A DNA stretch of 63,886 nucleotides, filler included, from Reclinomonas americana ATCC 50394 (Eukaryota): the NCBI GenBank assembly GCA_048213135.1. It is 6 parts of 5 records of this genome, joined end to end, with 100 filler letters (N's around TTAATTAATTAA, not from the genome) between each part and the next. Parts side by side here need not be neighbours in the genome. Positions count along the whole stretch, not along the records: positions 22,639 to 54,367 come from PS015217.1; 5 more parts are not named here. The stretch is one strand, 5' to 3'. Below, piece after piece: positions 5,958-63,791 of the stretch (its first letter is position 1; the number at the start of each line of letters is the position of its first letter). Under the pieces are notes generated by a model. That model saw nothing but the letters and a program-made list of their open reading frames with translations. It was not told where the DNA came from and did no database searches. The translations under genes were made by a program, and so were the position numbers.

Positions 5958-6799
5958 TCAGTCAGAGAGGTCCTCATCTCGAGCTGCGGAGAACGCTGCA
6001 CGTCAGTTCGCCAGCATATGCAGCCACGCTTGCATACACACGCACCTCGGAACAAGAACTCCATGATTGAATACGAGAACTTGGCGACCAGCTGCTGGCA
6101 GAACTCGGCGCCGCGTGCCGACACACCGCCGTGCTCCTGCAGCATGGGACTGTACACCGCAATGCCCATGGTGTTCGGCACCACCATCTGCGGATTGACA
6201 CGCAGGTGAGAAGATGGCACAAACGAGGCGCATGCTCAACCACGCGCGCACACGCACCCACACCGCGCCCGAGATGCCTCGACACGCCGGCACTCCCACC
6301 GTGTAGGCCCACTCGCCACTGAGTTCGGCCATGCCACACAGGAACATGACCTGAAGCGAGTTCTTGGCCACCTTGGTGTCCAGCACGCGTCTGCGCCACG
6401 CACGTATGAGAAACTTACACGCACACACACGTCTCCACACCCATACTGACGCAACTCAAGAGTCGTGGGACACACGCCGCCATTGGCCAGCGTGCCGGCA
6501 ATGTTTGCCAAGCCCTGCACCGTGGTCTGCGTCGAGCATACTTGAAAATAAAAGTCGAGTGTCTCCAGCAGCCGCGAGCGATCGAGTCCCTTGACATCGT
6601 GGCCGTCCTGAATCGCCGCCAAGCGATGAGAGCGTAGAACTAATAGCAATGAGCAATCGAGAAATGATTACCATGTAGTACAGCAGCGCGCGACTGCGAT
6701 CATTGTACTCCTTCTCCGACAGGTACGTCCGTTGTGAGAAGGTGAGTGGTACGCCGCCCGACATGTCCATCAGCCGCTCCACCACGTATGCGAAGCGCT
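5958..6799 (-). CDS. Glutaminase-family protein, C-terminal exons, divergent
   Basis: Exons read MSGGVPLTFSQRTYLSEKEYNDRSRALLYYM / LLETLDFYFQVCS...ANIAGTLANGGVCPTT / VMFLCGMAELSGEWAYTVGVPACRGISGAVW / VVPNTMGIAVYSP...SARGAEFCQQLV, collinear with GLS-type glutaminases. Stop TGA at 5958-5960. Confidence 0.9.
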
Positions 6800-10666: not shown

Positions 10667-11149
10667 ATGGCGTGGCAGTTGCGCTTGAGCGAGCGAGTGA
10701 GCGATTGAGTGTGTGAGAGATTCTCTCCTCACACACTCTGATCGCAGCTGTTCGGCGCATTCGAACGCGGACCTCGCCCGTAACTTGAAAGGTATTGTCC
10801 TCTGTCTCCATTGCCTTTCCTCGACTCACACACACACCTTGCGTCCAGCTGGTCGCCTGTACTCCAACGCGCGAGTCGGCGAAGCTCTGTTGGCCACCGA
10901 TCGCGGTTACTACACGTCGTCATCGCCGTATGAGGATTCTCCGCAACCAATCGGCTACAATGCCACCAGTTGCGCTGTCTTCTCTCGTCTCTTCCGCTGG
11001 TACCTGATCGTCTTGCTGATCATGGAGGGAGAGAGGAGCAGTCTCTGCGCCGCATATGCACGCAATGTGCTTGGAGGCACTGGAGCCGTTCTTGCAGCCG
11101 GGAGCACGGGCACTGGATGTCGGTTCTGGTGCGTTCCGCCTCCTTGCGC

Positions 11150-11181
<32 letters not shown>

Positions 11182-11749
11182 GAGCGTGGGGTCGCACAGG
11201 AACCGGGTATCTGACTGCGGCCATGGCACGCATGGTGGGCGAGTCGGGCAAGGTCGTTGGCGTGGAGCACATTCCCGAGCTGGTGGAGATGTCGCTGGCC
11301 AACGTGCGTCGCGACGATGCCTCGCTGTTGGAGACCGGCCGGGTGGTCATCTCAGGTGAGACGCGCTTCACAGTTTGGTTCTTTTCGCATCTTGCTGGAT
11401 GGATGCCAATCTCGACGGGTGGCATGCAGTTGGCGATGGCCGTCTCGGGTACGAAAGCGAGGGGCCGTACGACGCGATCCATGTGGGCGCGGCCGCGCCA
11501 GGTGACGCACGCACTGTGCTCTTCTCCTTCTACAAAAGAGATGCTTACGTTGATGCGCACAATACAGCCGTCCCCAAGGCGCTCCTGGAGCAACTCAAGG
11601 CTCCCGGTCGCCTGATTATTCCAGTCGGTGACTGGGCGCAGGATTTGCTGCAGATCGACAAGGATGCCGACGGCAACATCACCGAAAAGTCCATTTGCGG
11701 CGTGCGCTACGTCCCTCTCACCGAGCGCGAGAAGCAGTGGCGAAGCTAA
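10667..11749 (+). CDS. PCMT1: Protein-L-isoaspartate(D-aspartate) O-methyltransferase, 7 exons
   Basis: Fully spliceable model: [13 protein letters not shown]...[19 protein letters not shown]...ALDVGSGTGYLTA...[11 protein letters not shown]...VGDGRLGY...[11 protein letters not shown]...[16 protein letters not shown]...VRYVPLT. TAA at 11747-11749. Confidence 0.97.
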
Positions 11750-28595: not shown

Positions 28596-29274
28596 GGATG
28601 CCTGGTTTGCTCTTGAGTGGTGCGGGGCAAATTGAGTTGAGGACAGACTTCCATGTCCTCCCCTTCTTCTCGTCATGTATACCACCTTGTCGGCACTCTG
28701 CCGCAGAAACAACTCACCACGGACCCGCTGAGATCTGCAAAGCGGCGCGAGGCGACCCACGCATTGCGCCTGACTTCGAAATTGCGCATGCGACGTCGAC
28801 ACAAATGCGGATCCGGACGGCGCGTGACCGTCAGCGAGACACGCAATCCCGATCCCGACAAGTCTGTCTTTTAATGATCAGAGCTTGTCACGAGCAGTGG
28901 TTCCTTGCACACCCCAGCATTTGGACAATTTTCGACTTTTTTCTCCCGTTTTGCTTCCAAAGATGTCTTCGTTTCCGGTGATCCCACTCAAGACGATGAT
29001 CATCTTGCCGCTTTGCGCCATCAACGTTCTCGTTGTGTTGCTGTACACCAATATCGACGACCAATATCGAAAATTTTAATTACTCTTGCTGCACACGCCA
29101 CGTTGAATGACACAAGCGCATTCCAAACAACGCCACTCACCACTCCATAGCCCCTTCTACTGCATAAGAATACCACACTCTGCATTTTCGGTAACTCCGG
29201 CTGATACACTACGTGTAACGTCACGCTGCGGCCACACACATTGATTGTCATCTCACATCTCACACGCGCGTGCA

Positions 29275-29875
29275 ATGAACACGCCCGGTCTCATCGTTCC
29301 TCCACCCGACGACGGCGGCACCGACATCAACTCGCGCCCATCCACTCCACGCAACAGCACTGATCATCACATCAACAACAACAACACGCGATCCTTCTCG
29401 TCGTCCATTGCATCAGACATTGTTGTGGTCGAAGATGTGGACTCCGATGCATCAGTGCCTCCATTGCCGCCTCCTCCACTGGTGACTGCGCGATCAGCAG
29501 CTGCCACGCCCTCTGCAGTGCGCATCACTGTTGACAGTAATGGAGAGGCTGGAGGCCTTGGAGGAGGAGGAGACGCGCATCGTCATGTGTCGCACACTGG
29601 CTCGGAGATGAAGCTGATGGGAGTGACAGCGACGGACTCTGATGAGATCACTGATCATGTGCGAAAGGGCAGGTCAGTTTGTGCACACTCTCCTTTTTTA
29701 ATATGTTCAGCTTGTGTTGTTGTGTTCGCTGTCCATCCTCTCTCTCTCTCTATCTCCCTCTCTCTCTCGCAGTTACTCATCTGTCACTGCCTCATTCTCT
29801 TTCTGACGCTGCCAGTGTATTCGAACCCGTCACTCACTTGTCTCTCACTTCTCTCTTTTTCTTCTTGTTTCTCTC

Positions 29876-29916
<41 letters not shown>

Positions 29917-31958
29917 GTCACTCATCAGTCCCTGCCTTCCTCTCTTTCAGACGCTGCCAGTGTATTCGAACCCGTCACTCAGTTGTCTCTCACTGCTCTC
30001 TCTTCTCTCCCCCTCCTCTCTCTCTCTCTCTTGCTCACTCTCTTCAGTCAGTGGCTTCTTTCTCTCCAAGACGCTGCCATTGTCGAACCGGTCACTCACT
30101 TGTCTCTCACTGCTCTCTCATTGCTCTCTCTCCCTCCCTCCCACCCTCTCTCCCAGTCATTACTCATCATCCGGTTGCATCTTTTTTCTTTTTCAGTCTC
30201 TCGCTCTTGCAGTCCTCGTCGCTCTCTTGTATGTCGATCTTGCTGCTCTCACTCAGCTTCCTCTCTCTCCCACTGACACTCTTTATTCCAGCCTCTCTTA
30301 TTCAGCCTTTCGCTCTTGCAGTCCCTCGTCGCTCACTTCACTCAGCTTCCTCTCTCTCCCACTGACACTCGTCTCATGATCTCTCGTCGCCCAATCCCTC
30401 ATGGTTGCTATCGTCCTTCTTCACTCACTATCGTGCTTGTCTCTCATCATCAGCTTCTTGCGACCCGTCACTCGCTCATGGCGATTGGGACCGTTCCGGT
30501 ACGATAGCAGGTTGTACTTGTGGTTTTACCGGCTGGCGGTGTTCACTCACTGCTTGTTTTCCAGGTACGATGCACGAAGTGGGCGATATGAGGGCATTCA
30601 CATTCCCGTGGTGTTTGATCTGGTGATGAATCGAGTGTGGACGCGATGGCTGTGTTGCGTTTCTCTCACGTCGTTTTTTCGCCACTACTCGTTCGTGAGG
30701 CTGCTGACGACGGTGTCGTTCGTCCAGTTATCTCGCTGTTCACTGGATTCCTTGCCGTGCTGCTGTACATTCTCGTGGGCCCCGTGCTGCGCGATCCCAC
30801 GTTGCAGGTGTGGTGTTGCTCGGCGCGAAGCACATGTCGATCTCCCTCCTCCTCCTTCTCAATTTTTGCTCCTCCGTCCTCGTACCTCTCCCCTCTCCTC
30901 TCTCCTTCCCCCTCCCTTCCCCCTCCCCTCCCTCCCTTCCCCCCATTCGCCCCTCCCTTCCCCCTCCCTTCCCCCATTCACCCCCTCTCACCCCCCCTCT
31001 CCAGAGCCGCGCCTCGAGCACCGTCGGCTCCCTCTCCCTCAGCTCCTTCCCCTCCTCGGGTGCCTACGGCACCACCCTCGTCCCTCCACCATCCGTCGTG
31101 ATCACCAGCCTGGACGGCAGCCCGCTTGTCGGCGTCACCGTCACCGTCACAGCCGTCGCCGACCTTGAACGCCTGGGCCCGCTCGAGTTCCCACTCGACT
31201 ACGCCGCCCAGCCCTGCAACGCCCCTCTCCTGCGCGGCAGCACCGCCGTCGTCACCAAATACGGCGGCGTGGCCACCTTCTCCGACCTTACCATTGCCGC
31301 TGGCGACTGCGGGCGCACCACGTGGACCGACTACAGCACCATGGACGCGTACAGGTCGCGTACCATGGTGCAGACTCCTTCTATTTTCCCCCTCGTGAGC
31401 GCTCATATCCTGCGACAGACTCGTGTTCTCCGCCGGAAACGGGGCCGCCAGCTCCCAGGTTGTCGTCCACATGGCCTCCGCTGTCGCCAAGGTCGTGGTC
31501 ACCAACAGCGCTGACGTGCGACTGGCCAGGAGCGAGATAGGCGTCGTACGTTCTTGCAGAATCAAGTCAGTCTTCCTCGCTCGCAGGACGACTCACACAC
31601 TCTGCACGCAGCCCTTTGTCTCTCAGCCCGTGGTGCAAGTCCTGGACGCCAATGACCAGCCGCTATCTGGACGATACGTGAGCGCCGCCGCCGTGCCACG
31701 CTTGTTGGGCTTTGGTTGCGTGATTGACGTGTCTCGTTCTTGTCGGGATGTTTCCCTTGCTGACTCCTCGCCCACCCACACACAGCGGCGCCCCTGGCTA
31801 GCAAGCTTGGTGAGTCTCTCTCTCTCTCTCNNNNNNNNNNNNNNNNNNNNTCTTCGGGTCGGTGTTCCGTTTCCGTTCCTTCGTACGTACCTCCGTCCCG
31901 ACCCCACCCACCACCACACGGCGGCCCGTCCGGTCCGTCGTCGACGACTCGTTGTGTC

Positions 31959-32008
<50 letters not shown>

Positions 32009-35000
32009 CGTCGTCTCTCTCGCTTCCCTTCTCTTCCCCTTCTCTCTCTCAGTCTCTCTCTCTCTCTCTCGCTGTCTGCCTGTCTGTCTGTGTCTCTCGT
32101 TCTTCTTCCGTGTCCTCCTCCCCCCCGTCTCTCTCCCTCTCGATGCACGCCTGTCCCTCACGTCTCCTCTCATTTCTCTCCCCCCTCTTCCCCCTTGCCC
32201 CCCTTCTCCCTTCTCTTCTCCCTCACTTCTCCTCTTCGTCGACAGTCACCCTGGCCAACTACCGCGTCGGACCGACCAACTCCACCGGCATTGTCGAGTT
32301 CTCCAACCTCACCCCCCTCGGCACCAACACGCAGACCGCCTTCATCTCGCTCAGCGTTGCGTGTGCCACTCCCCCAGCGCCGCCGTCATTCAGCGCTTCA
32401 TTCTCCTCTGTTGTCATGAGCGCAGTGCGAGGGAGTGGCCACATTGTGGGGCGTGGAAAACAACCAGAAGCAGCTGGCGGTCGGCTTTGTCAGCCCCGTG
32501 ACCAAAGTCGTCATTCAGGTGCAGCCCTCGTCGACTGTGGTGGAGGGCAGTGTACTCGACCGGCAGCCTCGCATGCAGGTGGTGGACGTGTCGGGCTTGC
32601 CGGTCTCCGGGCGTATTGTGTATGCTATGCTGTCGATGCTGGGTGCGTGGACGAAGAAGGGGGAACGGTGACTGCGTGATCCTCGTTTGCTTCTCCTGTC
32701 GGTCTCGCCCTCTCCTACTCTCTTCCCTTCTCAAGCTCTCCGAGTTGGCGACACGATTCTTGCTTCTCCCCTTCGTCAGCACAGTGCTCCAGATTGTCCT
32801 TGGGGCTTCCTTTTCTATGTTCACTCGTTTGAGCACGAGCGCACACCGTTATGGTGATCGTCAATGTTGTCGACGCGCGCTTCGCCACAATCATCCTTCT
32901 CGTCATGCCTGATCCCGCGCGTTCCCCTCAATATTTTCCTCATTCCGTTCCACCATTGAGTCGTTCTCCGCTGTGCTGTCATTTTTCAGAGTCCCTTTTT
33001 CATCCATGTCATTTACCATCAGACTTCTTACCCTCTTTCCTCTCCACCTCTTCACTTTCTGTTCTCCTTCCTCTTGCTCTCGCCCTCTCCCTTCCTCTGT
33101 CTCCCTCCCCCTCTTTCCCCTATTCCCCTCTCTCCCTCTTCCCCTCTCTCCCTCTCCCCTCCCCGCTCTCCCCCCTCCCCCCTGTCTCCCCCTTCCCCCC
33201 CCCTCTTCCCCCACTAACCCCCCTCCCCCACCACAGAGGGCGCCAAAACCTACCGTCTGAACACCGTCTCGAAGAGCCTGCGCACGAGCAACTTCAAGAC
33301 CCTCACCTCCTTCACCGCCACCACCGACAACAACGGAATGGCCACATTCACTCAACTGGGCTTCTCCAATCACGGCAACGCAGGCGAGTTCGAAATCACG
33401 TTCTATTGCGACGGCATTGCGTCGGTGCGACGCGCTCTCTACGCCACCCTGCTATATATTTATTGCAACTCACTACGCATCTTTCTCTTGCTGCAGCCCC
33501 CGTCCAGCACCATCACGGTGCAATCACTGGGTGCGTGTGCCCCTGTTTCCCTATCGCCTCACGTGATGCGTCTTCTCATACGCATGTGTAGCCACCCAGC
33601 TGCTGCTGACATACTCTGGCGACACGGTCACCATCTCCAACGGAGAAGGGCCGTGGAGCTTTGGCGTGACGTCGTTGCAGGTGTACGACGCTGACGACCG
33701 ACGTGCGTGTCTTCATTATTCTGCCCACCCAACACTTTTCTTTTTCTCCTCACACTTGCTCTTTCACAGCGCTGGTCGGCAAAGTGCCTGGTGCGTGTTG
33801 CACTTCACTCTTCTGTGTATCTCCGTGAGTGATTCACCTCTCCGCCTGCGTGCAGTGTTCTCGCTGTTCCCCATTGGACACAGCGGCAATGCCTTCCTGC
33901 GAGCCGCCAGACCAACGGGCCTGTACACCGAGTTGAGTAACCGCTTGCCGTTCTCTTTCCCCGCATGTGACTGCACGTCTCATGTTCCGTACACAGCTCC
34001 TCCGGTCTCGCACTGGCTGTCCTCCAGCTGGCCGCCGCCGCGCCTGGTCAGTATCGCCTTAGCGCCACTCTCGACGGCTTGACTGCCACAGCCGCCAACC
34101 CGCTGACAGTGGTCAACACCGCCTCATCGTCAAGTACCACATGTCAGTTTGTCAGATTTGTCAGAGGACCTCCATCCACTGTGCCGCTGTACACGGGCTT
34201 CTCGCAACCGATTGTGTTGCAGGTGCGTGTTGTCCAGGTAGAGGACATGTCAGTCATTGCTCTTCTCATTTTGTCTTTCTTTCCGGCAGGCCGTGAACTC
34301 GTACGGCAATGCCGTGGCGGGTGTCGCGCTCAGTCTTGCAGCAGTCGACGTGCAGGGTATTGGCATCAATTTTCATCCGTTGCGTTGATAAGCAGATCTC
34401 AGTCGGAAGGGGGGCCGCGGGAGCGTGTCACTTTGCACAGTCGAGTTTCCTGTTCATGTGCTTTCTGTTGTGGTGTGTTTTTCTTCCTGCAAGTCTTTTG
34501 CCCTCGCCTCCCCTTGTCAGCATGGTTCCTCCATCGCTTTCTCACATCGCTGAGTCTTTCTCACTGCTTCCTTAGTTTTTCGGTTCGTCTTCCTTTCCAT
34601 TCCTGCAAGTACTTTGCCCTCGCCTCCCCTTGTCAGCACTGTTCCTCCATTGCTTTCTCACATCGCTGAGTCTTTCTCACTGCTTCCTTTGTTTTTCTGT
34701 TCGTCTTCTTGCCATTCTTCACCCTCGCCTCCCCTTCCTCCAGATGTCGTTTCTCACAACTCAGAGTCTCTCTCACTACTTCCTTTGTTCTGGTTTGTTT
34801 TTCTGTTCGTCTTCCTTTCCCTCGCCTTCCCTTGTTGATACTGATCCTCCAGGTATCGTTTTCTCACCATCCTGAGTCTCCGTCACTGCTTCATTACGCA
34901 CTGCTCCTCGATCCACCATTCATCTTCTGCCTCTTTTTCATGTTCTTCTTGTTCTCCTTGTCCTTCTTGCTTCCGTGCTCCCTCCTCGCTCCTTCTTTCT

Positions 35001-38000
35001 CTCCCTTCATCTTCTTCTTTCCCGCCTCCTCCTCGTCCTCTTTGTTCTCGTGATGTATCTCGTTATTCTTCTCACGATTGTGTTATCTGTCTTCACTTGT
35101 TTCCTTTCCCCCTTCCCCCTTCTCCCTTCCTCACATCCTCTCGTCCCCTCCCGTCTTCCCATTCGCCTTTTCTTTCCCTTTGTCTTCCTCCTTCCCCTCA
35201 CCCGTCCCCTTCGCTCTTCCACCTCCCAGAGTGCAGCCCACGCTCACCGACTCCACTGGCCTCGCCACTATCACGGGCGTTCAAGTTGTTCGAGGTCATT
35301 TTTCGTTGGTATTCCCATCTCTGCTCATCAGCCGATCCTAACCGTCTCTCCCGTTTTCAGCCCTCAGCAATACGATCTTCATGACGGCAGCACAGGTGGG
35401 GAGCTGCCGCGCCGACGAGACCGTCGGTCCAGCCATCACCATCACCGGCGACGGTACTTTGAGTCTTCATTCAGCGCCACAATCTCATTCTTCTCTTCAA
35501 TTCACTTGATCGTGTCGCCCCCCACAGCCACACAGGCACGCTTCGCCCAGCAGCCGGCGTGTTCGTCCAGCGGTTCTGCACTTTCCACACAACCCAAGGT
35601 TCGTTATACCCAACACTCAATCCTCTTGCGCCTCATCAAATCCACATCGTTGTGCACAGGTCTGTGTCGCCAACGCAGATGGCAATCCAATCGTCGGCAT
35701 GCCGCTTGTGCTGGGTCTCGACTTGAGTGGTTGCGTACCTCTGCCTGTTCGCCTCATCGCCTGCGAAGTACCCGCTGATGTGTGTGGCAGTCATGTCGAC
35801 GATGTTCGCCATGCCGGATTCATGGCTTGATCCGGTCCTTGGCTTCGGCTCGCCGCTCATTCCACAGCCTCTGTTTGTGTTTGGACATGTTGCGTGCCAC
35901 TGTTGCTTGCATATCTCCGCTCTTCCGGCTTCCTCTTCCTCTCCTTAATTTTTCATTGTCTCTGCCTTTCTCTTTATCGCTCCCCTTCTCCTTTCCATCT
36001 CGCTTCCCCTTTCCTCCACCCTCCCCCTTCACATTCCCCCTTCTCCTTCTCTCCTTCCTCCTGCCTCCTTCTCCCTTCCTGCCTCCCTCTCTCTCTTCTC
36101 CTATCTCCCTCTCCTTCTCCCCTCCCCCGCTTCTCCTCTTCTCCCTCTCCTCTCCCCTTCTGCTTCTCCTCCTTCCCCCTCCACCCTCCCCCCTTCACCC
36201 TCCCCCTTTTCCTCCCTTCTCCTTGCACGTTTCTGCACTCACCCGTCACTCCGCTCGCAGCAATTCTTGACCTCGCCGTCCACCTTGGCCGTGCCGACGT
36301 TCCACCTGCGTGACAATAGTTTTTCGATCTACACGGCAATCATGTCACCATCTCCCACCGACAGCGAAGGTGATGCTCGTCTCGCAATATACCTTTCCGT
36401 GGGATGGTCGCGACAGCTAATTTGTGTGTGCGATGCAGGATGCGCAACATTTGACATCCGAGTGGCGCCAGGCTTTGGTTTCCCCATGTCAATTATCCCG
36501 ATTGCTGGCGGCCGTTTCTTCAGCAACTCTGACATTTTCCAGTGCACCACCAAGGGTGAGCAGCACGTGTCGCGTTGTGCTACGCTATGCTTGTCTGCTG
36601 AAGCCTGCTCTTCTCTCGTGTGCGCAGCCGCCAGCATTCGCATCGTTCAGCAGCCGCCTGCCAATGTCGAGATTACGACGCCACTGACGACGCAGCCTCG
36701 GGTGCGGGTGTTCGACGCCATGAATGTGCCGGTGCCGTACGTGTACGTGACGCCATTGGTGAACGGCGTGCGAACCAACTATCGTTGCTCGTCTGAACCA
36801 ACACCTCTTGCTCTCAAGTTGCGATGGCACTCCATGTGAGTCGTACTTTGGAGTTGCTTGTGCTGATTTTCTCCCACAGTGACCAAGTGGTGCAGGCGGA
36901 CGCCGACGGCTTCGTCACCTACACAAGTGAGCTCTCTACTTGCCCCCTACCTCCTCCCTCCCTCTCTCTCTCTATGTTTCACTCATCCGTGCGCTCCTCA
37001 GCTCTCACCCTTTACGAATCCGGGCCTGGTGACAATGCAATGGCGTTTGCCAGCTTCTTTTCCGGAGCAACCTCATTAATTAGTGATGTGAGCAACGACT
37101 TTGTGGTCTCGAACCCCGTGGACTCGGTGGTGTCCACGTGGCCGTCAAAGGTGCCGGTGACTGCCACTGGCCAGTTCCCTGCAAATCTGCAGCCCGTCGT
37201 GCGCGCCACCTTGACAGTGGGCGCAGCGCTGCCGGCGGGATTCGACCTCAGCAACATTAGTGTCAGCGCCTGCTTGTACTCGGCGGTGGTGCAGGCCACT
37301 CAGTTGTCACGGTCAGTGCTCAACGACTCGCTCAAAATGGACAGCAACGGGTCGGCGGCCTACACGTCGTTGGGCATTGTCGGACCGGTTCTGTAGTTGT
37401 TTTCCGCTCCCGCCTTGCCGTGCTGCGCTCTGACTCGCTCGTATCATGTGCAGGTGGGCTCGTACAGCTTGCTGTTTTGCACCCTCGGCGTGTGTAGGTT
37501 TGACCTTCGAGCTCGCAATCCTTGCTCGTCTCTCCTTTCCCCTCATCACTCCTCCCACAGCTCGGCCTCCCCGCAACTTCGCCTCACGCAAACTCCTTCC
37601 TCGATAACTGTGGTCTCCACCCCGTCGTCGGCCCTCGTTGGCTCGCCCTTCTCCTCTCCGCCTCTGTGCATCTACGCTGGCGCAGCATCCGGTGCCCCCA
37701 TCGGCAACATTAGCGTGTCGGTCGCTGTTGCCACGTCGGTGAGAGTGCATGATGTCGACGATGCTCCACTCGTATGACGCACGTGCTGACTCCCACGCGC
37801 AGTTCTTCACGAAAACCGACAATGTGTTGCTGGAACCGAGCAACCTTGAGGCCGTGACGGACGCAAATGGCGTGGCCTGCTTCCGCACGTTTTTCATTAG
37901 TGCCCCTTCCGGTGCGGTTCTCTCTCTTTCTCTCTCTCTTTTGTCCCCTCTCTCTTTCATTCTTTTTCTCTGTATTTCTCTCACACCTTCTTTCTCTCAC

Positions 38001-41000
38001 TCTTTCTCTCTATCTTTCTCTCTGTCCTTCTTTCTTTCTCTCTCTCTCTCTCTCTCGTTAACCTTTTCTGCCATGGTCAGGTTCATACAAGCTCAAGTTT
38101 TCCTTCGGAACGGTGACGGCCACGAGTGCGCCCATTCAAGTGGTCAACGAGGTTGATTACTTGCAGATTCTGCAACAGCCGGCATCTGACGCGGTACTCG
38201 GCGTGGCGCTGTCGGCGCAGCCGGCGGTGAAAGTGGTGGGACTCGGTGGAGGTCTGGCACGGCGACTGGTCATTGCTTGGGCTGCGGGTGGTGACACGCG
38301 CCTGAATGGCAATGTGCGTCGCCTTCCCGTTCCCGCTTCATGTCTCTCAGCAGTGGCTGACATGTTTTTTGCAGTTTGAATTCACCGACGCGAATGGAGT
38401 GGCCACGTTTACCGATTTGACCATCGTGGCCGGCCCAACCGGCGCAGTGAAACTGTTCTTCACATGCCAGGGTATTCTCAGCAACAGCACGCAGACCGTC
38501 AATTTTGTCAACAATGCCCAGCCCGACACGGAGAAGCTGTCGAAGGTGTGTCGGCTTGATTGTTGACTGCCTCTCACATCCACTTGCTCACGCACGCTGC
38601 TAGATGGAGCAATACATTTACATCTCGGTGGCATTCGCGGTGCCGTTGTTCCTCGGTGCCGTCTCGGTCAACTGGGGCGTTCTCATGGGCTGCTCCATGG
38701 GTATCGTGGTATTCGCCATGGTCCTGCTCTTCCGTGCGTGGCGTGGCTGGGTCGCCTCGGGTGACGGACTTGTATTCGTGCGTTTGTTTTCGTGCACTGC
38801 AAATCATCGTCGTTCACCATGATTGATTGTTGTTCGTTGTGGCGCAGTACTCACGTGACAAGTACGACGGTGTCATCTCCACGCTGGTGGCGTACTATCT
38901 GGTCTACTTGGCGATCCTTATTATTGGTGCGCGAGGGTAGAAATGCTACAAGCAGATGGAGCACAACTCACCGCGCGCGCTCCTCAACGCAGTTCACTTT
39001 GTCTTGTGGGTGACACGCTGGCTGCAAAGCCACAAGTTCTCGCGCAGCCGAGATGCTCAGTACAGGGAACTCACACGACGACTGGTGACCGCCGAAGTGA
39101 AGCTCGATGCGGAGATGGGTGTCGATCCGTTTTTGCCACCGCCGGCGTACCCCTGGTACCGCAAATGTTTCGTGTGTGTGTGTGCCTGTATTCTGTTGCA
39201 CACCTGGCCTTGTGCTTATCAGCGACTCACAGTGTGGAACCTCGTGTCGCCGCCTCAAACCGGCGACCAGCGCCGATTCCAGACCGTGGGCTTCTTTTAC
39301 CCACTGCGACTGATGGTGGTGCCAGCTGGCACCGTCGTTCTTCTCTTGTTCCTCGTTGCGTTACCTCCGTTTGCGACGCACTCATGATGCGCACTCTTCG
39401 CATTTGCTCACTTTCCCGACGCAGTATGTGGCGCTTGCCGTCGGCCTCGACTGGCTCAATGTTACCTACCGAGACGCGGTTGGATCGGCACTGGGCTTCT
39501 TCGAGAAGCAGCAACAAAAGGTGGTCAACGCGTACCAGACGTTCCTTGTGCAGAATGCGAACTTTGCAGTGGCCTTTGACAGCGCCGCCGCCACGGTGTC
39601 CTCCTTCCTGCAACTCAATTCGGGGCCGTCTCTCGCCGCCGCCGGTGAAGGTTCGAGAATTGACCTTGCGCGCGTGTGTGTGTATCTGCCGTGGATTCTA
39701 ACGCGGCGTGAGTGCAGCGTTGCAATCGTTCAACATTGCCACGTCGTTGAGCACATTCCTGGCCCAGGATTCGGACTTTTCTGTGCTCAACTCGCTGAAG
39801 TTTGCCGTGTGGTTTGTCGTGCCAGTTGCGTGACTAACTGCAGAAACTCAGCATTGTCGCTCTGTCGTCTTACCTGTTGTGTGTCTTTTGCAGATTGTCA
39901 CGATTGCCGTGGCGGTGAATCTTTGGTTGATGATGCGCTCGTACCGCAAGTCGGTGAGTGGCGAGGAGTGAAGAGAGGAGAAAGTACCGAATGAGGTGAC
40001 AAACAATTCTCGGGGGCTCGCAGATCTATCAACTTCGACGCGGACATAATACTGTACGCGTGCTGGGCACAAATCCTGCACAAGGTTTGTTACACTCGAT
40101 TCTCTATTGCTTCTGCTGCGATCGTCTCACAGCGTCTTTTGCATGGTGCAGCTGTGTTTTATGTAGCAATGCATCTATACTGTACGTCGTCAGCCTCGTC
40201 ATCTGCCGTCGACTCTTTGTTGTCGCTAACAGCTTTGTTTTCCTCTTGCAGCGGTGTTGATTGCCTTTGTCATACTCCAAGTGCTGCTGACAGCAGTCAT
40301 TTTTGTTCTCGGTACGGCGCTGCATGTACCGAATCTTCACTGTATACGTAGTTGTGTGCCCATTGTGATTCGTCTTCAGCCTGGGAGCCGTCACGCTCGT
40401 TCCTTTGGCGAGTGCTGAAGAAGGTGTTCATTGCACTGCTGTCGATCAAGCTCGGAACGAAGATCCTCTACATTATGTTGCGTGATGGGGGAATGCAAGG
40501 CTGCATGAATTCGAAGGGCGGATCCGGAGATGCTTACATGCACTTGCGCTACCGACGCAGTTTTGCCAATTGCATAGTCGTGCGCCGTGGCAAGATCGTC
40601 CATCCGCGCGGATTCATGCTGTTCGACTCGGTGTACACCATCATCACCTTGTTTCGTCATCGGCGTCGTCCTGGCCACACAATACACGTCTCCCCTCACT
40701 TGTCCGTGCCCGCAGTGTGGTTGGCCCGCTGAGCGCATTGACGCGTTTGATCATTGCCTTTGCACTGCAAGTGCTCGGCCTGATGCGCTTCGATGTCCCC
40801 ACGTCAGCCGACATTCTGGGCCTCGACAGCTGTGCGTTGGGTGTGCGCGGACGCTGCCATACGATGTGTCTTGTAAGCCAACATGAGTGTTCCCCCGTGC
40901 AGGTCACGACAGCTGGCGTGCGATGCTGCACGTGGACCATCAATTCAACAACCCGCTAATGCATGTGTTCTGCAAGCTGCTTTACCAGCGTTGCGTTTCT

Positions 41001-41635
41001 CTCGATTCCTGCACCCATTCTTGCGCTCACCCACTTGAGCAGCGATCTTGGCGCGCCGAAAGGCCACAGAGTGCCTCAACCCAGAGTACCCAGTGGGCGT
41101 ATGTCAGTCCATCAAGTTGCGCAATCTTCCCCTGCAGTGCCTCGTCTTCAAGAAGCTCACTGGTATGCGCAGGATCGACATGAATCACCCTCCGTCGGTG
41201 CTTGTGCCGACCGAGCACGAAATCAGGGCCAAGGAGGTGTGTGCTCCCGTGCAACGATCTCCATTAGCCACCACGCTCATCGACCTCGTTCTGTGTGTGT
41301 TTGTTACTGTGTGCGAGCAGGCCGCTGTGCGTCGACGTCGCGCACTGAACCGGTGGAAACTGGCCATCACCCTCATGCGCAATCCCAGCCTCCAGGAGCA
41401 TCGTTTGCATGCCATCGAGGCCCGTAAGGCGGAGGAGTTTGAGCGCCAGCAGCAATTGCTCGAGGAGCAGAAGGTGACGTGGCGTCAGACGGTGCGAGAT
41501 GTGGCGGCCGGACTTCGACCACTGGCGACACAGGCAATGCCGCTGTCACGAGTTGCACGACGAGGGTCAGTAGTGCAACCGTTGCCGCAGACCCTCGGCG
41601 ACATGATGTCGAAGACTCACGAGATGGAAGTATAA
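29275..41635 (+). CDS. Large membrane protein: N-terminal cytosolic tail, TM segment, about ten Ig-like repeats, then a STRA6/RBP-receptor-like multi-TM domain
   Basis: Repeats of QP.V.V.D..G.P..G...TD..G.A.F (31.1-38.4 kb). The C-terminal motifs FFYPLRLMV, YRKSIYQLRRG, FNNPLMHVFCKLL and ALNRWKLAITLMRNPSL parallel STRA6 motifs. TAA at 41633-41635. Confidence 0.85.
29770..30370. repeat. Intronic tandem duplications (three copies of gacgctgcca.tgt..tcgaacc.gtcactca.ttgtctctcact; two copies of cactcagcttcctctctctcccactgacactc)
   Basis: Direct reading inside intron 1 of the STRA6-like gene. Confidence 0.8.
34500..34900. repeat. Intronic ~100-115 nt tandem repeat, about four copies
   Basis: cctcgcct.ccct....tttctcaca..(g/c)tgagtct.tc..cactgcttc recurs near 34502, 34618, 34723 and 34820. 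Confidence 0.8.
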
Positions 41636-42632
41636 TGTACATAAAAGGCAACCACCGTGTGACAACTCCCACAGCTCTTCACTCTGATCAAGGCCACCAA
41701 GCAGTGTTCGCTGCTGCCGGCGCCGCGCGCTCCCGTTCGCTATCAACAACAATTCATTCACCAACAAACAGGCAAAGAAAAACACTTCATTCACCACATT
41801 CCACTAATGCGACAAATGTCCACAAATCCCTTGCCGACGATGACGAGGCCGGAGGAGGAATTCGAATTCGAAGAGGCCGGGGCGATCGCGAACACCGGTA
41901 CCGCCACGGCCGGCCCCACCACCTGCAAGCTGTGATTTCGCGCGCGCGCGATAGTTTGTGTGCATAGCCTTGACTTGCACTATTTCGTTCACTGCGTGCA
42001 TCCACGCTGCGATCAGATCGTAGCGCTGCGGTTGGTTGAAATGGTGCGCGAATTCAATCCAGATTTCCACTGTTGGAATATCATGGTTTCATAAAGTGAA
42101 AATACGATCGGAGTCTTACACACTCCTCTTGTTTTTCACTTTCTTTCCTGTTGAGACTCCCGTCATTGTGTTGACTCTGATCGTTCACTGTTGAAATTGC
42201 AATTTCAACAAGCTCGAGATGATGAGCACAAGGGAACTGGCCTCTCCTGCTCCTGCCTCGCCTGCAACTCCGCAACATCAGCTTCCGACCGTGCATGCTC
42301 AGCAGGTGTGCACACACGCGCACACGCACAGAGAACATCGAACAGAATTCTTCAAAACTACTGGGTAGTTGCTCATCATTCGTGGCGTGCACGTGCATGT
42401 GTTCTGTTCTGGAATTGTCGGAGCAGTTGTTCGCGACTGCACAGCACTCTCGCGTGTCGTGTGCCTGGTGTTGTGAGACACGCTGTATTGACAACATGGC
42501 GGACAGAGTATCTGTCTCCTGTTTGTGCATCGGCAGATCTTGGTTCACTGCACATCGTCTAGGTTCTTGTCAGGAGTACTCCTGTGCCCATTCGCTTCCT
42601 CCTCGCTGCAGCACGCATGCGAGCACGTAGAC

Positions 42633-55653: not shown

Positions 55654-58619
55654 ATGCTTGAGGACGGTGATAGTGAGGCCGGCGGCATGTTTCCGATGCT
55701 TGTTGGTCTGGGACACGCGCCCACGCGACACCACCGTGGCGGCGGCGGCGGTCACCAGCGACCGTCTCCTCCGCGCAAGAAGGCGCGCGCAGGAGCACCA
55801 CCACCGGCAGTTGCCGCTGGCCACAACAAGTCCTCGTCTTCTCCGTCACTGGTGGATGCGTTGACGGTGTCGGTGTTGGCGGCGGCGGCGTCGCACTTGA
55901 CCATGGCGAGCGAGGACGAGTTTCGGCGGCCGCCGGGCTTTGAGAGGAAGCGATCAGTGTCGGTGGCGGCGAGACCGCGCATCGACAAGCAGGCGTCGGC
56001 TCGCCAGTTGCACAGTAGTAGTGTGAGCCCGTCGCCACGCGCAAGCTCATCGCGCACGTTGCGTTCGGCGTCAGGCGTTGCGCGCGTATCGTTTCATGTG
56101 ACTTATCATGTGGCGTCTTGCAGTGGTGGTGGTGGGGGAGCGTTGCCGCCGCTGGAGTTGCCGGCGCCTGTGAGCACGGTGCCGAGGTTACAGCCGGGCA
56201 TCACGGCGGGGTCGACGGCGCGAGCGGTGCGATCGTGGTTGCAGGAGAACAAAAACCTGCCGGTGTCGCTGCTGGTGCCGCCGCCGCTGTATGTGCCGCG
56301 GCATGCGTCGTTGAAGGTGGATCCGGCCGCTGTAGCCGCGCATCAGGCCGGACTGAAGCAGCGGCGCGCTCATGTGGCTGCGCAGTTGCGTCGGCATCAT
56401 GAGGTGAGACCACTGGAGATGTCGCCGTCGCCGTCGCCACAGCCGCTGCCGCCCTCGTACACGCCGTTTGCGGAGGATCCAGTGGCAGAGGCACCGCCGG
56501 CTGTCGGCGACAGTCATGACGACGATCGCCTCGACGAAGGGGACAGCGTGGGGACCGTACCGCGAATAGTCNNNNNNNNNNNNNNNNNNNNGTGTGCCGA
56601 GTACTCACCGAGGTCCACCTGCAGCACCTCAATGGTGGTGTTCAGGGCAATCGCCCCTGCAAATGCGCTGATGCGCGGCCGCGATAGCAGCACTCGACTC
56701 GCTACGGCCGGAATTAAAAGTGAGATACTTTAAGAAGACATTAAGCACTCGCGGCGACCACCGGACATACCAGTGACATCGAGTTCGCGCGTGTGACACG
56801 CCGGTGTGCGAATGGCTTCGCACACTTGCTTGAACACGGAGTTTTCGAGCCGTCGCTCGCCCAAGTGGACGACGCCAATCTGCTCCTCGGCCGACAGCTG
56901 CTGTCGGACCATGGCGAATGCGCGTCGCGTAGAGTCGGCCACCACAGGTAAGAGGAGGCTGTCGGCCGACAGCGACTGATCGGGTGCGGGGAGCGTGGGA
57001 CCTCGGGGCAAGCCCGTGTCGGAAATGAGCGCCACCACCAGATCCTCACTCTCCGCCGACTGCATCAAGTAGGGCAATCGCTGCAGCAGTGATTCGCGAC
57101 GACGCTCAAGATCGGCCGAGTGCACCAGCGTCGACAGCATGTACGACTCGTCGGGTATCTGGTGCAAGTGGTACTGCATCGACACCGGATCGAGGGCCAC
57201 CGACTCGCGATGTCGAGCCGCAATCCCCGCCGGCGCCCCAGGCAATTGCAGGAATCCACCGCGCTTGTCGATGCCACTCAACACCGTCACCCTCTCCCCA
57301 GCATTCTCCATCTCGTAGCGATCGTCTGGCGGCTCNNNNNNNNNNNNNNNNNNNNTCGTTCTCTCTTTTTTCGGATGCACGAATAACTCACCGATCTGTG
57401 TTCGTGCGTCGCCAGAGGGGCTGTCACTGCCGCTGGTTCAAGACTTTGCGATTTCACTGGCCATGATCCTCCAGCACAACCACGCCCTCTGTGCTGTTTA
57501 CCTGAAATGTGCAGGTTTGCTGATGGAGTTGTCTCTGCAGCCTCCTGTCTCTCCCGCTTGCTCACACCTGCCACAGAAATGCTGCTCACCAGCTCGATTG
57601 CCGAGTGCCTCTTTTCGGCCTTGTCGCACAATCGGTCGCTGCGCGAGTTGTCGATCAGTGGACCACTGGTCGTGCAAGACACGAATTTCGGTGATGCCTA
57701 CAACAGCACCGGCACCGGGAGACGAATGGCCGAGCTGAACTGGGTGAATGCACTGAGCAAGCTGTTCCGCTACAACCGCACACTGCACCGGCTCGGCATC
57801 GGCGGCTCCTTCTGGCAGCACGCCCTGCCAGACTGTGCCACGGCACTGGCGCACCACAATCGCACCCTACACTCGCTGTCGTTGGCTCGTGGCGATTTCT
57901 TCGCCACCGGCAACGAATTCCTGCTGGCCTCGTGCATCGAGCGGCTGCTCGCCGGCAACTTGGTGGAGTTGGATCTGTCGCACAACCGCCCATTCGAGGA
58001 GAGCGTCATTAGTGCGCTGTGCACGGCACTGCCGGGCAACAGCACACTGCGGGAGTTGAATTTGTCGTCGTGCGGTCTGGGATCGTCGGCGCTTGCACGT
58101 CTCGGCGAAGCCATTGCAGCGCTGCCGCCAACGTCGTCGTTGTGTCGCGTGAATATTGCGCACAACGCGGCGCCGAGTCGGCCCTTTGAGCTGGCGTGCG
58201 AGGCGGCTCTCGACCTGACATTCGAGCGGCTGGAGCTGGAGCGTGCACTCGGCGTGTGGAATGGTACGACAGCTTCTTGCAGGATAGGAGGGCCCCATTA
58301 TTGTGTTTGCTCACCCACGCGCGCAGCCTCGGCCGACGAAATGGACGAGCACGTACAGCGCCTGTGGACGGGCCGAGTGGTCGGTGGCGGCGGCGGCACG
58401 ACGGCGGGCGGTGTGGGAGGCAGTGGCACGGGCCACGACGATCACAACACGGGCATTCGACTGGATCACGTGGACATGCTGCGACGGAGGTACCTGGAGG
58501 CGCGCAGCGCAGCACAAACATGGCGCACCATCTTTCCCAGTGTCATCGACGTGGTGCAGAGGCAGACGGTACGATTGCGGAGAGCGGCCGGCAACGCTCC
58601 CGTCGCCGCGCCATCATGA
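55654..58619 (+). CDS. Ribonuclease-inhibitor-type LRR protein; the middle part (56592-57335) is on the opposite strand in this assembly
   Basis: ALSHNRSLRELSISG, NRTLHRLGIGG, NRTLHSLSLA, LVELDLSHN and NSTLRELNLSSCGLG in 57507-58619. The inverted contig carries TRELDVTG and LNTTIEVLQVD. Start codon uncertain. Confidence 0.75.
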
Positions 58620-63024: not shown

Positions 63025-63349
63025 CAATTGGAAAGCGCGTGATCATGATATCATGAATTTGTGACGATATTGATGCTGCGTGTGTGTGAGCATCGTGTTC
63101 CCCGCGTATATCTCAGCACCTATGCTGCCTCAGTTGTTGGAGGTGTGGTGCATTGCTCATTCTCTTCTCTCTATGCGTGCGTGTGTGTGTGCAAGAGAGC
63201 AAAAAGGAGGAAGGAGAGAGAGAGAGAGAGAGGGGAGAGAGAGAGAGCGAGAGAGTGGAGAGAGAGCGAGTGGAGAGAATGAGAGAGAAGAGAGCAACAA
63301 TGCGCTCACAACACTCCTCTCCCCTCACCCCTCCCTCTCTCTTTCTCAG

Positions 63350-63684
63350 GACGCATGATTCCTCCCTCTGGCCACGGCTTCTCGCTCATTCGCAGCACAC
63401 CCGAGCTCTGTTACGTAGACAAAACCGCTCAGCTCCTCGCGTGGCTTCGCCCGCCAAGCGTATCGCCCTTGATCTATGTGCGCCCGCGTCGCTTTGGCAA
63501 GAGCCTGCTGCTCGACACACTCGCCAACTACCACGACATTAACAATGCGCTGCCTCCCGGGAAGCGCTATGCACACCGTTCAACCATGGAGGAAGTGCAT
63601 GAACAAGCCGTGTCGGCGTTGCACGCGAGGCTGCTCAGCGGGCGTGTCTCGCACGGCGAGAGTGCGTTTGAGCAGGTGTTCCAG
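63350..63684 (+). CDS. Bacterial-type AAA-ATPase-like domain exon (YVDKT...RPRRFGKS family)
   Basis: FSLIR...YVDKTAQL...YVRPRRFGKSLLLDTLANY, bounded by a polypyrimidine-CAG acceptor and a GTGGGT donor. Confidence 0.85.
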
Positions 63685-63791
63685 GTGGGTGTGAGTATGA
63701 GTGTACGAGAGGAGTGATGGCGACAGCAAAGATCCTGGTACAGCACCTTGCAGAGAAGAGGAGAAGGAGGAGATGCCATGGTGGAAGTAGG

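Follow-up and report, generated by a model that had tools for sequence, protein, structure and literature searches.

A putative surface protein joining Ig-like repeats to a candidate STRA6-family membrane domain in Reclinomonas americana

Does a single eukaryotic gene join a membrane domain of the STRA6 kind to a long array of immunoglobulin (Ig)-like repeats? The question was raised by positions 29275-41635 of a 64-kb stretch of Reclinomonas americana DNA (the window), for which a first-pass annotation had proposed a STRA6-like membrane domain fused to about ten invasin-type Ig-like repeats. The window contained 4,690 N in scaffold gaps, and it was eukaryotic, with many introns. It was considered moderately probable that one + strand gene at this locus specifies a membrane protein of the cell surface, made up of three parts: a signal sequence or signal anchor; an Ig-like array of ~1,200 residues; and a contiguous STRA6-family domain of ~570 residues with a CaMBP2-type tail. 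As predicted, this architecture is probably new within the STRA6 family, with exon boundaries that are provisional.

The STRA6 assignment was founded on the C-terminal end of the gene. The Pfam family PF14752 (RBP_receptor/STRA6; 605 profile positions, 25-bit gathering cut-off) was scored exon by exon and per open reading frame (ORF). Profile positions 514-543 matched an exon at 40890-40988 on the + strand (E 7.8e-5, 22.0 bits; E 5.4e-5 as part of the ORF 40887-41180). Positions 579-604 matched the first ~29 residues of the last exon, at 41321-41632 on the same strand (E 1.4e-3, 17.9 bits), and this exon ended in a charged tail of ~75 amino acids (aa) that is probably cytosolic. Two of the 49 ORFs translated from this region matched PF14752, and the remaining 117 ORFs in the window gave no match to it. 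Among the 24,736 families scanned, it was the sole family matched by two adjacent exons on the same strand and colinear with the profile. After correction for ~196 translations the first match was still significant by itself (7.8e-5 x 196 = 0.015), and it would be very unlikely for the adjoining exon to hit that family too, one of 24,736, by chance. If both exons belong to one protein, their combined 39.9 bits would clear the 25-bit cut-off.

A CaMBP2-like segment, which is a candidate calmodulin-binding helix, was located at 41333-41398 (+ strand), inside the RBP_receptor match to positions 579-604. In a phmmer search the sole PDB sequence matched by the last-exon query was 5k8q_B, a peptide of 29 aa from zebrafish STRA6 that was crystallised together with calmodulin (residues 5-26 of both aligned at 12.9 bits, E 1.1). 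This peptide is described as CaMBP2, the segment that begins at residue 554 in zebrafish and makes the most extensive calmodulin contacts of STRA6 (PMC7154012). The C-terminal strings quoted in the first-pass annotation were present in the frames 40887-41180 and 41039-41632, and its claim that the C-terminal match takes in the calmodulin-binding region of STRA6 agreed with the CaMBP2 alignment. Altogether, the results supported a genuine STRA6-family signature in the predicted C-terminal end, including a CaMBP2-type segment. The only PDB matches of the 40887-41180 translation (CEA and others) were rejected, as the aligned part was translated intron.

The multi-pass membrane region upstream of these matches occupied 38604-40831 (+ strand) and was composed of ~15 provisional exons in which no family match was detected at exon level. 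Hydropathy of the provisional model revealed 9-10 hydrophobic segments at 38604-40803, within ~470 residues, and the first membrane exon was separated from the CaMBP2-like segment by 566 residues. STRA6 has been described with nine transmembrane helices and one horizontal intramembrane helix (PMC7154012, PMC8595884), and with five extracellular and four intracellular segments, placing its N-terminus outside (PMC8595884). The predicted protein would resemble vertebrate STRA6 (zebrafish 5SY1; CaMBP2-calmodulin 5K8Q) and STRA6L/RBPR2 as follows: a match over PF14752 positions 514-604 that takes in a candidate CaMBP2-type helix; ~570 aa ahead of that helix (566 in the model versus a start at residue 554 in zebrafish; profile position 579 of 605); and 9-10 hydrophobic segments against nine transmembrane helices plus the intramembrane helix, with a compatible topology in which the N-terminus would be outside and the C-terminus inside. 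It differed in having an Ig-like ectodomain of ~1,200 aa and an N-terminal signal or anchor of its own, both of which STRA6 lacks. STRA6 instead binds a soluble carrier on its VI-VII loop. The first ~85% of the PF14752 profile was undetected here.

Several results weighed against assigning the whole membrane domain to STRA6, and these bear on the alternative that the domain belongs to another or unknown family and shares with STRA6 no more than a short motif in the tail, juxtamembrane or calmodulin-binding-like, by convergence or as a shuffled module. Each PF14752 exon match alone was below 25 bits, and together they covered only the final ~90 of the 605 profile positions, with no profile match upstream of position 514. 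In 11 of the 13 membrane-region exons PF14752 was unmatched even at E 10, a result of low power for exons of 20-89 aa. The CaMBP2-like alignment was weak (E 1.1), and the zebrafish STRA6 chain was unmatched by the 40887-41180 translation in a PDB sequence search, leaving no match to the solved chain beyond a 22-residue peptide. Atlas recognition of the 89-aa exon at 40382-40648 was low (1272) and yielded no usable match. Such a domain of other origin would, however, have to account for a single family among 24,736 being matched twice, independently and in colinear order, and for an overall length (566 aa) and a count of hydrophobic segments that fit STRA6; furthermore, exons of this size give little power for divergent membrane helices. 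The alternative was judged unlikely. For the STRA6-like membrane domain of the first-pass annotation, the C-terminal PF14752 signature in two colinear exons was upheld, but only for positions 514-604 of 605; the comparison with RBP_receptor, which it had proposed for the spliced gene, returned exon-level matches at 22.0 and 17.9 bits, each below the 25-bit cut-off.

Searches for relatives also failed to strengthen the assignment to a STRA6-family protein. A word-based protein search, which covered proteins up to 2,000 aa and so placed a ~2,100-aa orthologue out of range, returned no relatives of 39314-39991, and none of 40887-41009 at E <= 10. For 41039-41632 (the last 198 aa) no credible relative was found among 1.84 billion representatives, and metagenome scans with 41039-41632 and 38375-38545 returned no relatives. 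The sole match of 41039-41632, P0001 (E 4.5e-4), was rejected as a retroelement-like protein (Exo_endo_phos_2) with a low-complexity alignment.

Ahead of the membrane region, approximately ten diverged Ig-like repeats of ~100 aa each, with a predicted beta-sandwich like that of macroglobulin (MG) and Big_1 domains, were spread over ~27 exons at 31005-38545 (+ strand), giving an ectodomain of ~1200 aa in the model. The repeats exceeded what chance would give: a seed profile of three units found six further units in the provisional protein (independent E-values, i-E: 4.5e-7, 0.0038, 0.0074, 0.073, 4.8e-7, and 1.1e-6). When a seven-unit profile was run against six-frame ORFs of at least 20 aa from the whole window, 13 rows had i-E < 0.05, training units included. 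All 13 were on the + strand at 30708-38563; there were none elsewhere in the window and none on the - strand. On the spliced model the same profile gave ten domain rows, of which seven were strong (<= 8.5e-22) and three were weak (9e-7, 0.016, and 0.041). The earlier count of about ten units was thereby borne out, and the TD..G.A.F motifs were where they had been reported (T at 33323 and 38384; D at 33326 and 38387).

On the genome the ten profile rows, all on the + strand, lay approximately at: 31020-31328, 31522-32458, and 32498-33457 (rows 1-3); 33924-34099 (C-terminal half only), 34148-35386, and 35539-35701 (N-terminal half only) (rows 4-6); and 36552-37081, 37205-37588, 37589-38157, and 38149-38512 (rows 7-10). 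Pairwise identity among units was 17-45%. No DNA-level repeats were found between units; the DNA repeats consisted only of CT-rich tracts and two tandem duplications in long introns. Since the units are diverged and share no DNA repeat, the array is old. In the model the arm contained seven N-glycosylation sequons and 16 cysteines.

The fold of the repeats was less specific than the invasin type named in the first-pass annotation. Big_1 (PF02369) matched one of the 17 repeat-exon translations (15.1 bits, E 0.025) without reaching its cut-off of 34.9 bits, and at ORF level the match had an E of 0.068. An AlphaFold2 (AF2) model was made from the sole unit within one exon (31005-31352), with the other units supplied as an alignment. 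The model was all-beta and of moderate confidence (predicted local distance difference test, pLDDT, 65.9; predicted template modelling score, pTM, 0.51). Foldseek returned no match at E <= 0.001 for this model, its best match being complement C5 MG4 (E 1.4e-2). In a VIA-align fold search of 48,161 chains, five chains had Z >= 8, near the level (Z ~8) at which the tool warns of common arrangements; all five were complement C4/C5 MG4 domains (Z 8.3-8.5, 18-26% identity over ~90 residues). Next came alpha-2-macroglobulins (Z 7.1-7.5), invasin 1cwv_A (Z 7.1, root-mean-square deviation 2.5 over 80 residues), InvD and FdeC (Z 6.8), intimin (Z 6.0-6.4), and then filamin repeats. MG4 thus ranked slightly above invasin, by a difference within the tie zone. 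Atlas leads for the repeat unit were Ig_SMCHD1_6th, Big_1, MG4, and Invasin_D3 (0.81-0.89, all under the 0.9 line). The repeat profile gave a single weak row against PDB sequences (3e8v_A, E 0.81). A second AF2 model (37130-37387, without the last strands) was too poor to be used (pLDDT 55.1).

A safe statement from these results is that the repeats are probably an Ig-like beta-sandwich of the MG/Big_1 kind and not 'invasin-type'. The Ig-like repeats of the earlier claim stood, while its invasin assignment was not supported as worded, Big_1 having matched 1 of 17 exons at 15.1 versus 34.9 bits and MG4 scoring slightly above invasin. Like this array as predicted, the Big_1 arrays of bacterial invasin, intimin, InvD, and FdeC string beta-sandwich domains of ~100 aa in tandem into a long stalk at the surface; one exon here also had the weak Big_1 match, and Big_1 and Invasin_D3 were both among the Atlas leads. 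In contrast to those arrays, the Big_1 cut-off was not reached, a beta-barrel anchor and a C-type-lectin-like tip were both lacking, and the gene was eukaryotic and intron-filled, with its array anchored by a polytopic helical domain. MG domains (complement C3/C4/C5, alpha-2-macroglobulins, and TEP1) provided the best fold matches, in MG4 of C4/C5. Macroglobulin and complement proteins differ in having thioester, CUB, anaphylatoxin, and receptor-binding domains; no Pfam family of these kinds, or of the bait region, was matched at E <= 0.1 among the 49 ORF translations of 29245-41964.

The last repeat exon and the first membrane exon were separated by 58 nt at 38546-38603 (+ strand), with a donor AAG|GTGTGT, an acceptor TAG|ATG and the reading frame in phase; 58 nt was also the modal intron length. 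Because this spacer is an in-phase GT..AG intron of modal length, the repeat array and the membrane domain are likely, as predicted from sequence, to be parts of one gene. The competing explanation puts the Ig repeats in a gene of their own, for a surface or secreted protein ending at 38564-38566, and has a separate STRA6-like protein starting at ATG 38604, for example in an operon-like arrangement with trans-splicing at the AG that precedes this ATG. It would fit the start of the first membrane exon exactly at an ATG, directly after AG, and the stop at 38564-38566 that the repeat frame meets 18 nt past the proposed donor when the intron is retained. That stop lies 37 nt before ATG 38604, and a gap of this length has no space for a promoter and untranslated regions in a genome with 12-kb genes; as it is too short for separate promoters at this gene size, two genes are conceivable only with operon-like trans-splicing. 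The spacer runs from a GT donor to an AG acceptor in the correct phase and with the modal length of 58 nt, and the outside N-terminus that STRA6 requires is supplied by the fusion. Two genes were accordingly considered distinctly improbable, and a single transcript is presumed below.

At the other end of the array, a hydrophobic segment at 30626-30807 (+ strand) would serve as signal anchor or signal peptide. It was split by a 74-nt intron (30654-30727), with its core coded at 30730-30807 and a Kyte-Doolittle 19-residue peak of 2.46. The combination of ATG 30626, basic residues and a hydrophobic core resembles a conventional signal sequence, which would put the array on the outer side. With this peak and the 9-10 segments downstream, the N-terminal transmembrane segment and the multi-pass C-terminus of the first-pass annotation were both recovered, as were its gene bounds, ATG 29275 and TAA 41633-41635.

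Three-frame translation of 29200-41700 showed + strand coding pieces that shift frame repeatedly, with short spacers and some long CT-rich low-complexity stretches between them. ATG 29275 opened a frame of 132 codons, and TAA at 41633-41635 ended the final frame. The exon model was obtained with a home-made dynamic-programming finder (codon log-odds, GT..AG sites, and phase tracking) from eight seed segments, with iteration. The resulting provisional gene model (29275-41635, + strand) had ~45 exons and 2,100-2,250 codons and was ambiguous at 34300-36300 and 39954-40251, each of which had alternative solutions (two at the latter). A 45-nt 'intron' excising the stop 41633-41635, seen in some parses, was rejected as shorter than usual introns.

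Counting against this gene model, the finder at equal parameters scored the reverse complement at 1932.1 versus 1562.7 for the forward strand, and the reversed sequence at 344.6. As the reverse complement outscored the forward strand, the exon model serves as a provisional map and reading aid and carries no weight as evidence. The + strand reading is backed instead by donor asymmetry, by the cluster of intron lengths and by an intron of a gene for protein-L-isoaspartate O-methyltransferase (PCMT). Donor-like GT[GT][CGT]G[TC]G?T motifs numbered 29 on the + strand versus 6 on the - strand, despite the + strand being G-poor. Thirty of the 48 modelled introns were 56-88 nt long, while the reverse-strand parse was without such a cluster. 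The PCMT intron (11502-11567; 66 nt, CAG|GTGACG...ACAG|) had borders set by homology to other PCMTs and provided an independent example of a short intron. Modelled donors at 29275-41635 preferred GTGCGT, GTTGCGT, or GTTCGT over GTAAGT/GTGAGT, and acceptors were nearly all CAG; the strand-asymmetric donor preference may help to place the lineage.

The start of the gene was less certain. Putative exon 1 (29275-29672, + strand; donor CAG|GTCAGT at 29673) was an open frame from ATG encoding a low-complexity, presumably cytosolic N-terminal region. It was followed by a CT-rich intron of 781 nt, which was atypically long and contained a 145-nt tandem duplication. Both exon 1 and this intron were atypical, a further point against the model; membership of exon 1 in the gene is uncertain, and the alternative start is ATG 30626. 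Tandem duplications within long introns were found at 29739-30028 (145 nt x2, 86% identity) and 34484-34708 (109 nt x2, 94%); the atypically long introns of the gene also held extended (CT)n or C/T-rich tracts. Over 30001-38000 the + strand had a GC skew of -0.24 to -0.31 and an AT skew of -0.32 to -0.44; this strong skew was limited to the repeat-array part and weakened over the membrane-domain part.

An assembly gap of 20 N at 31831-31850, in repeat unit 2, likewise told against an intact gene, as sequence of unknown length is possibly missing there. Together with several long CT-rich 'introns' (197-848 nt) that might hide missing exons, and a model unsure at 34300-36300 and 39950-40250, this gap inside the gene would be expected of a decayed or mis-assembled locus, either a pseudogene or a chimera over scaffold gaps. 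Open frames and matching splice phases were nevertheless kept by repeat units and membrane exons across 12 kb, the repeat units were diverged yet intact, and the sole gap inside the gene was short. Decay or mis-assembly was thus regarded as highly improbable, and an intact + strand gene for a single surface protein is retained in what follows.

Such a gene would extend what is in print on the family. STRA6 has been described as animal-specific (PMC5977736) and as having no sequence similarity to other transporters, channels or receptors (PMC7154012), and the invertebrate members treated in print are Stra6l-like genes of amphioxus and cnidarians, all homologues covered there being from animals (PMC3184775). 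Among the publications returned by a literature search, in the parts available from each, there was no report of a non-animal STRA6 member or of a fusion with an Ig array; InterPro and EukProt architecture tables, which lie outside that search, may list such proteins. If the assignment is true, a member that falls outside the animal, fungal and plant clades, which are well sampled, would provide an outgroup for the role of the fold before retinol-binding protein (RBP), and the protein would be a natural example of ligand capture built onto a passive transfer domain.

The proposed function follows the analogy with STRA6, which is described as a passive, bidirectional transfer protein for a hydrophobic ligand, with a large extracellular hydrophobic cleft and regulation by calmodulin on its C-terminal tail (PMC8595884, PMC7154012). 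Its carrier, RBP, binds the extracellular loop between helices VI and VII (PMC8595884). STRA6 is a dimer. Since the N-terminus of STRA6 is outside and the C-terminus inside, an ectodomain fused in front would stay extracellular. By this analogy the membrane domain would act as a passive, bidirectional conduit through which a small hydrophobic ligand moves from a carrier or surface outside the cell to the membrane or cytosol, or back. The Ig-like array could stand in for the docking of the vertebrate soluble carrier, capturing or positioning a ligand source (a particle, a cell surface, or a carrier protein), and Ca2+/calmodulin on the tail may modulate transfer. The Ca2+/calmodulin regulation and the lipid uptake or adhesion suggested in the first-pass annotation are putative properties of such a protein, and the most economical reading, we infer, is a receptor-transporter with a built-in capture or adhesion arm.

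A more tentative, and on the whole doubtful, extension is that the STRA6 fold predates animals and the retinol/RBP system. Under this proposal the protein would be a non-animal 'capture and transfer' receptor whose long Ig arm binds an external source of lipid, be it prey, a partner cell, or a carrier protein, and whose membrane domain moves the hydrophobic cargo across or into the membrane under Ca2+/calmodulin control. On this view vertebrate STRA6 would descend from such a receptor in trimmed form, with capture handed over to soluble RBP.

Other genes were detected in the window, and an Rfam search of it gave no match. The PCMT gene was located at ~10701-11746 (+ strand), with Pfam PCMT matches of up to 85.7 bits. 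The PCMT fragment had 42-54% identity to fungal, animal and plant proteins and one MMETSP transcript, taken over the best 120 of 1,721 matches. The apparent want of a close relative among these best 120 of 1,721 argues only against a densely sampled clade. By this one neighbouring gene the organism did not resemble an animal, and the protist origin given in the first-pass annotation is plausible by exclusion. The top PCMT match, P0002, scored high only through a tandem PCMT duplication. Profile positions 160-261 of the Pfam family Glutaminase were matched by two ORF pieces at 6006-6667 (- strand; 45.0 and 33.2 bits), which probably represent exons of a gene for glutaminase. At 57387-58616 (+ strand) an open frame of 410 aa matched a leucine-rich repeat family (LRR_6). 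A fragment of PF09820 (AAA-ATPase_like), a mostly prokaryotic family, was found at 63283-63714 (+ strand, 40.1 bits). The 2-kb stretch at 18001-20000, which adjoins a 20-N gap, had a very strong skew (GC +0.45, AT +0.55), opposite in sign to the skew of the repeat array.

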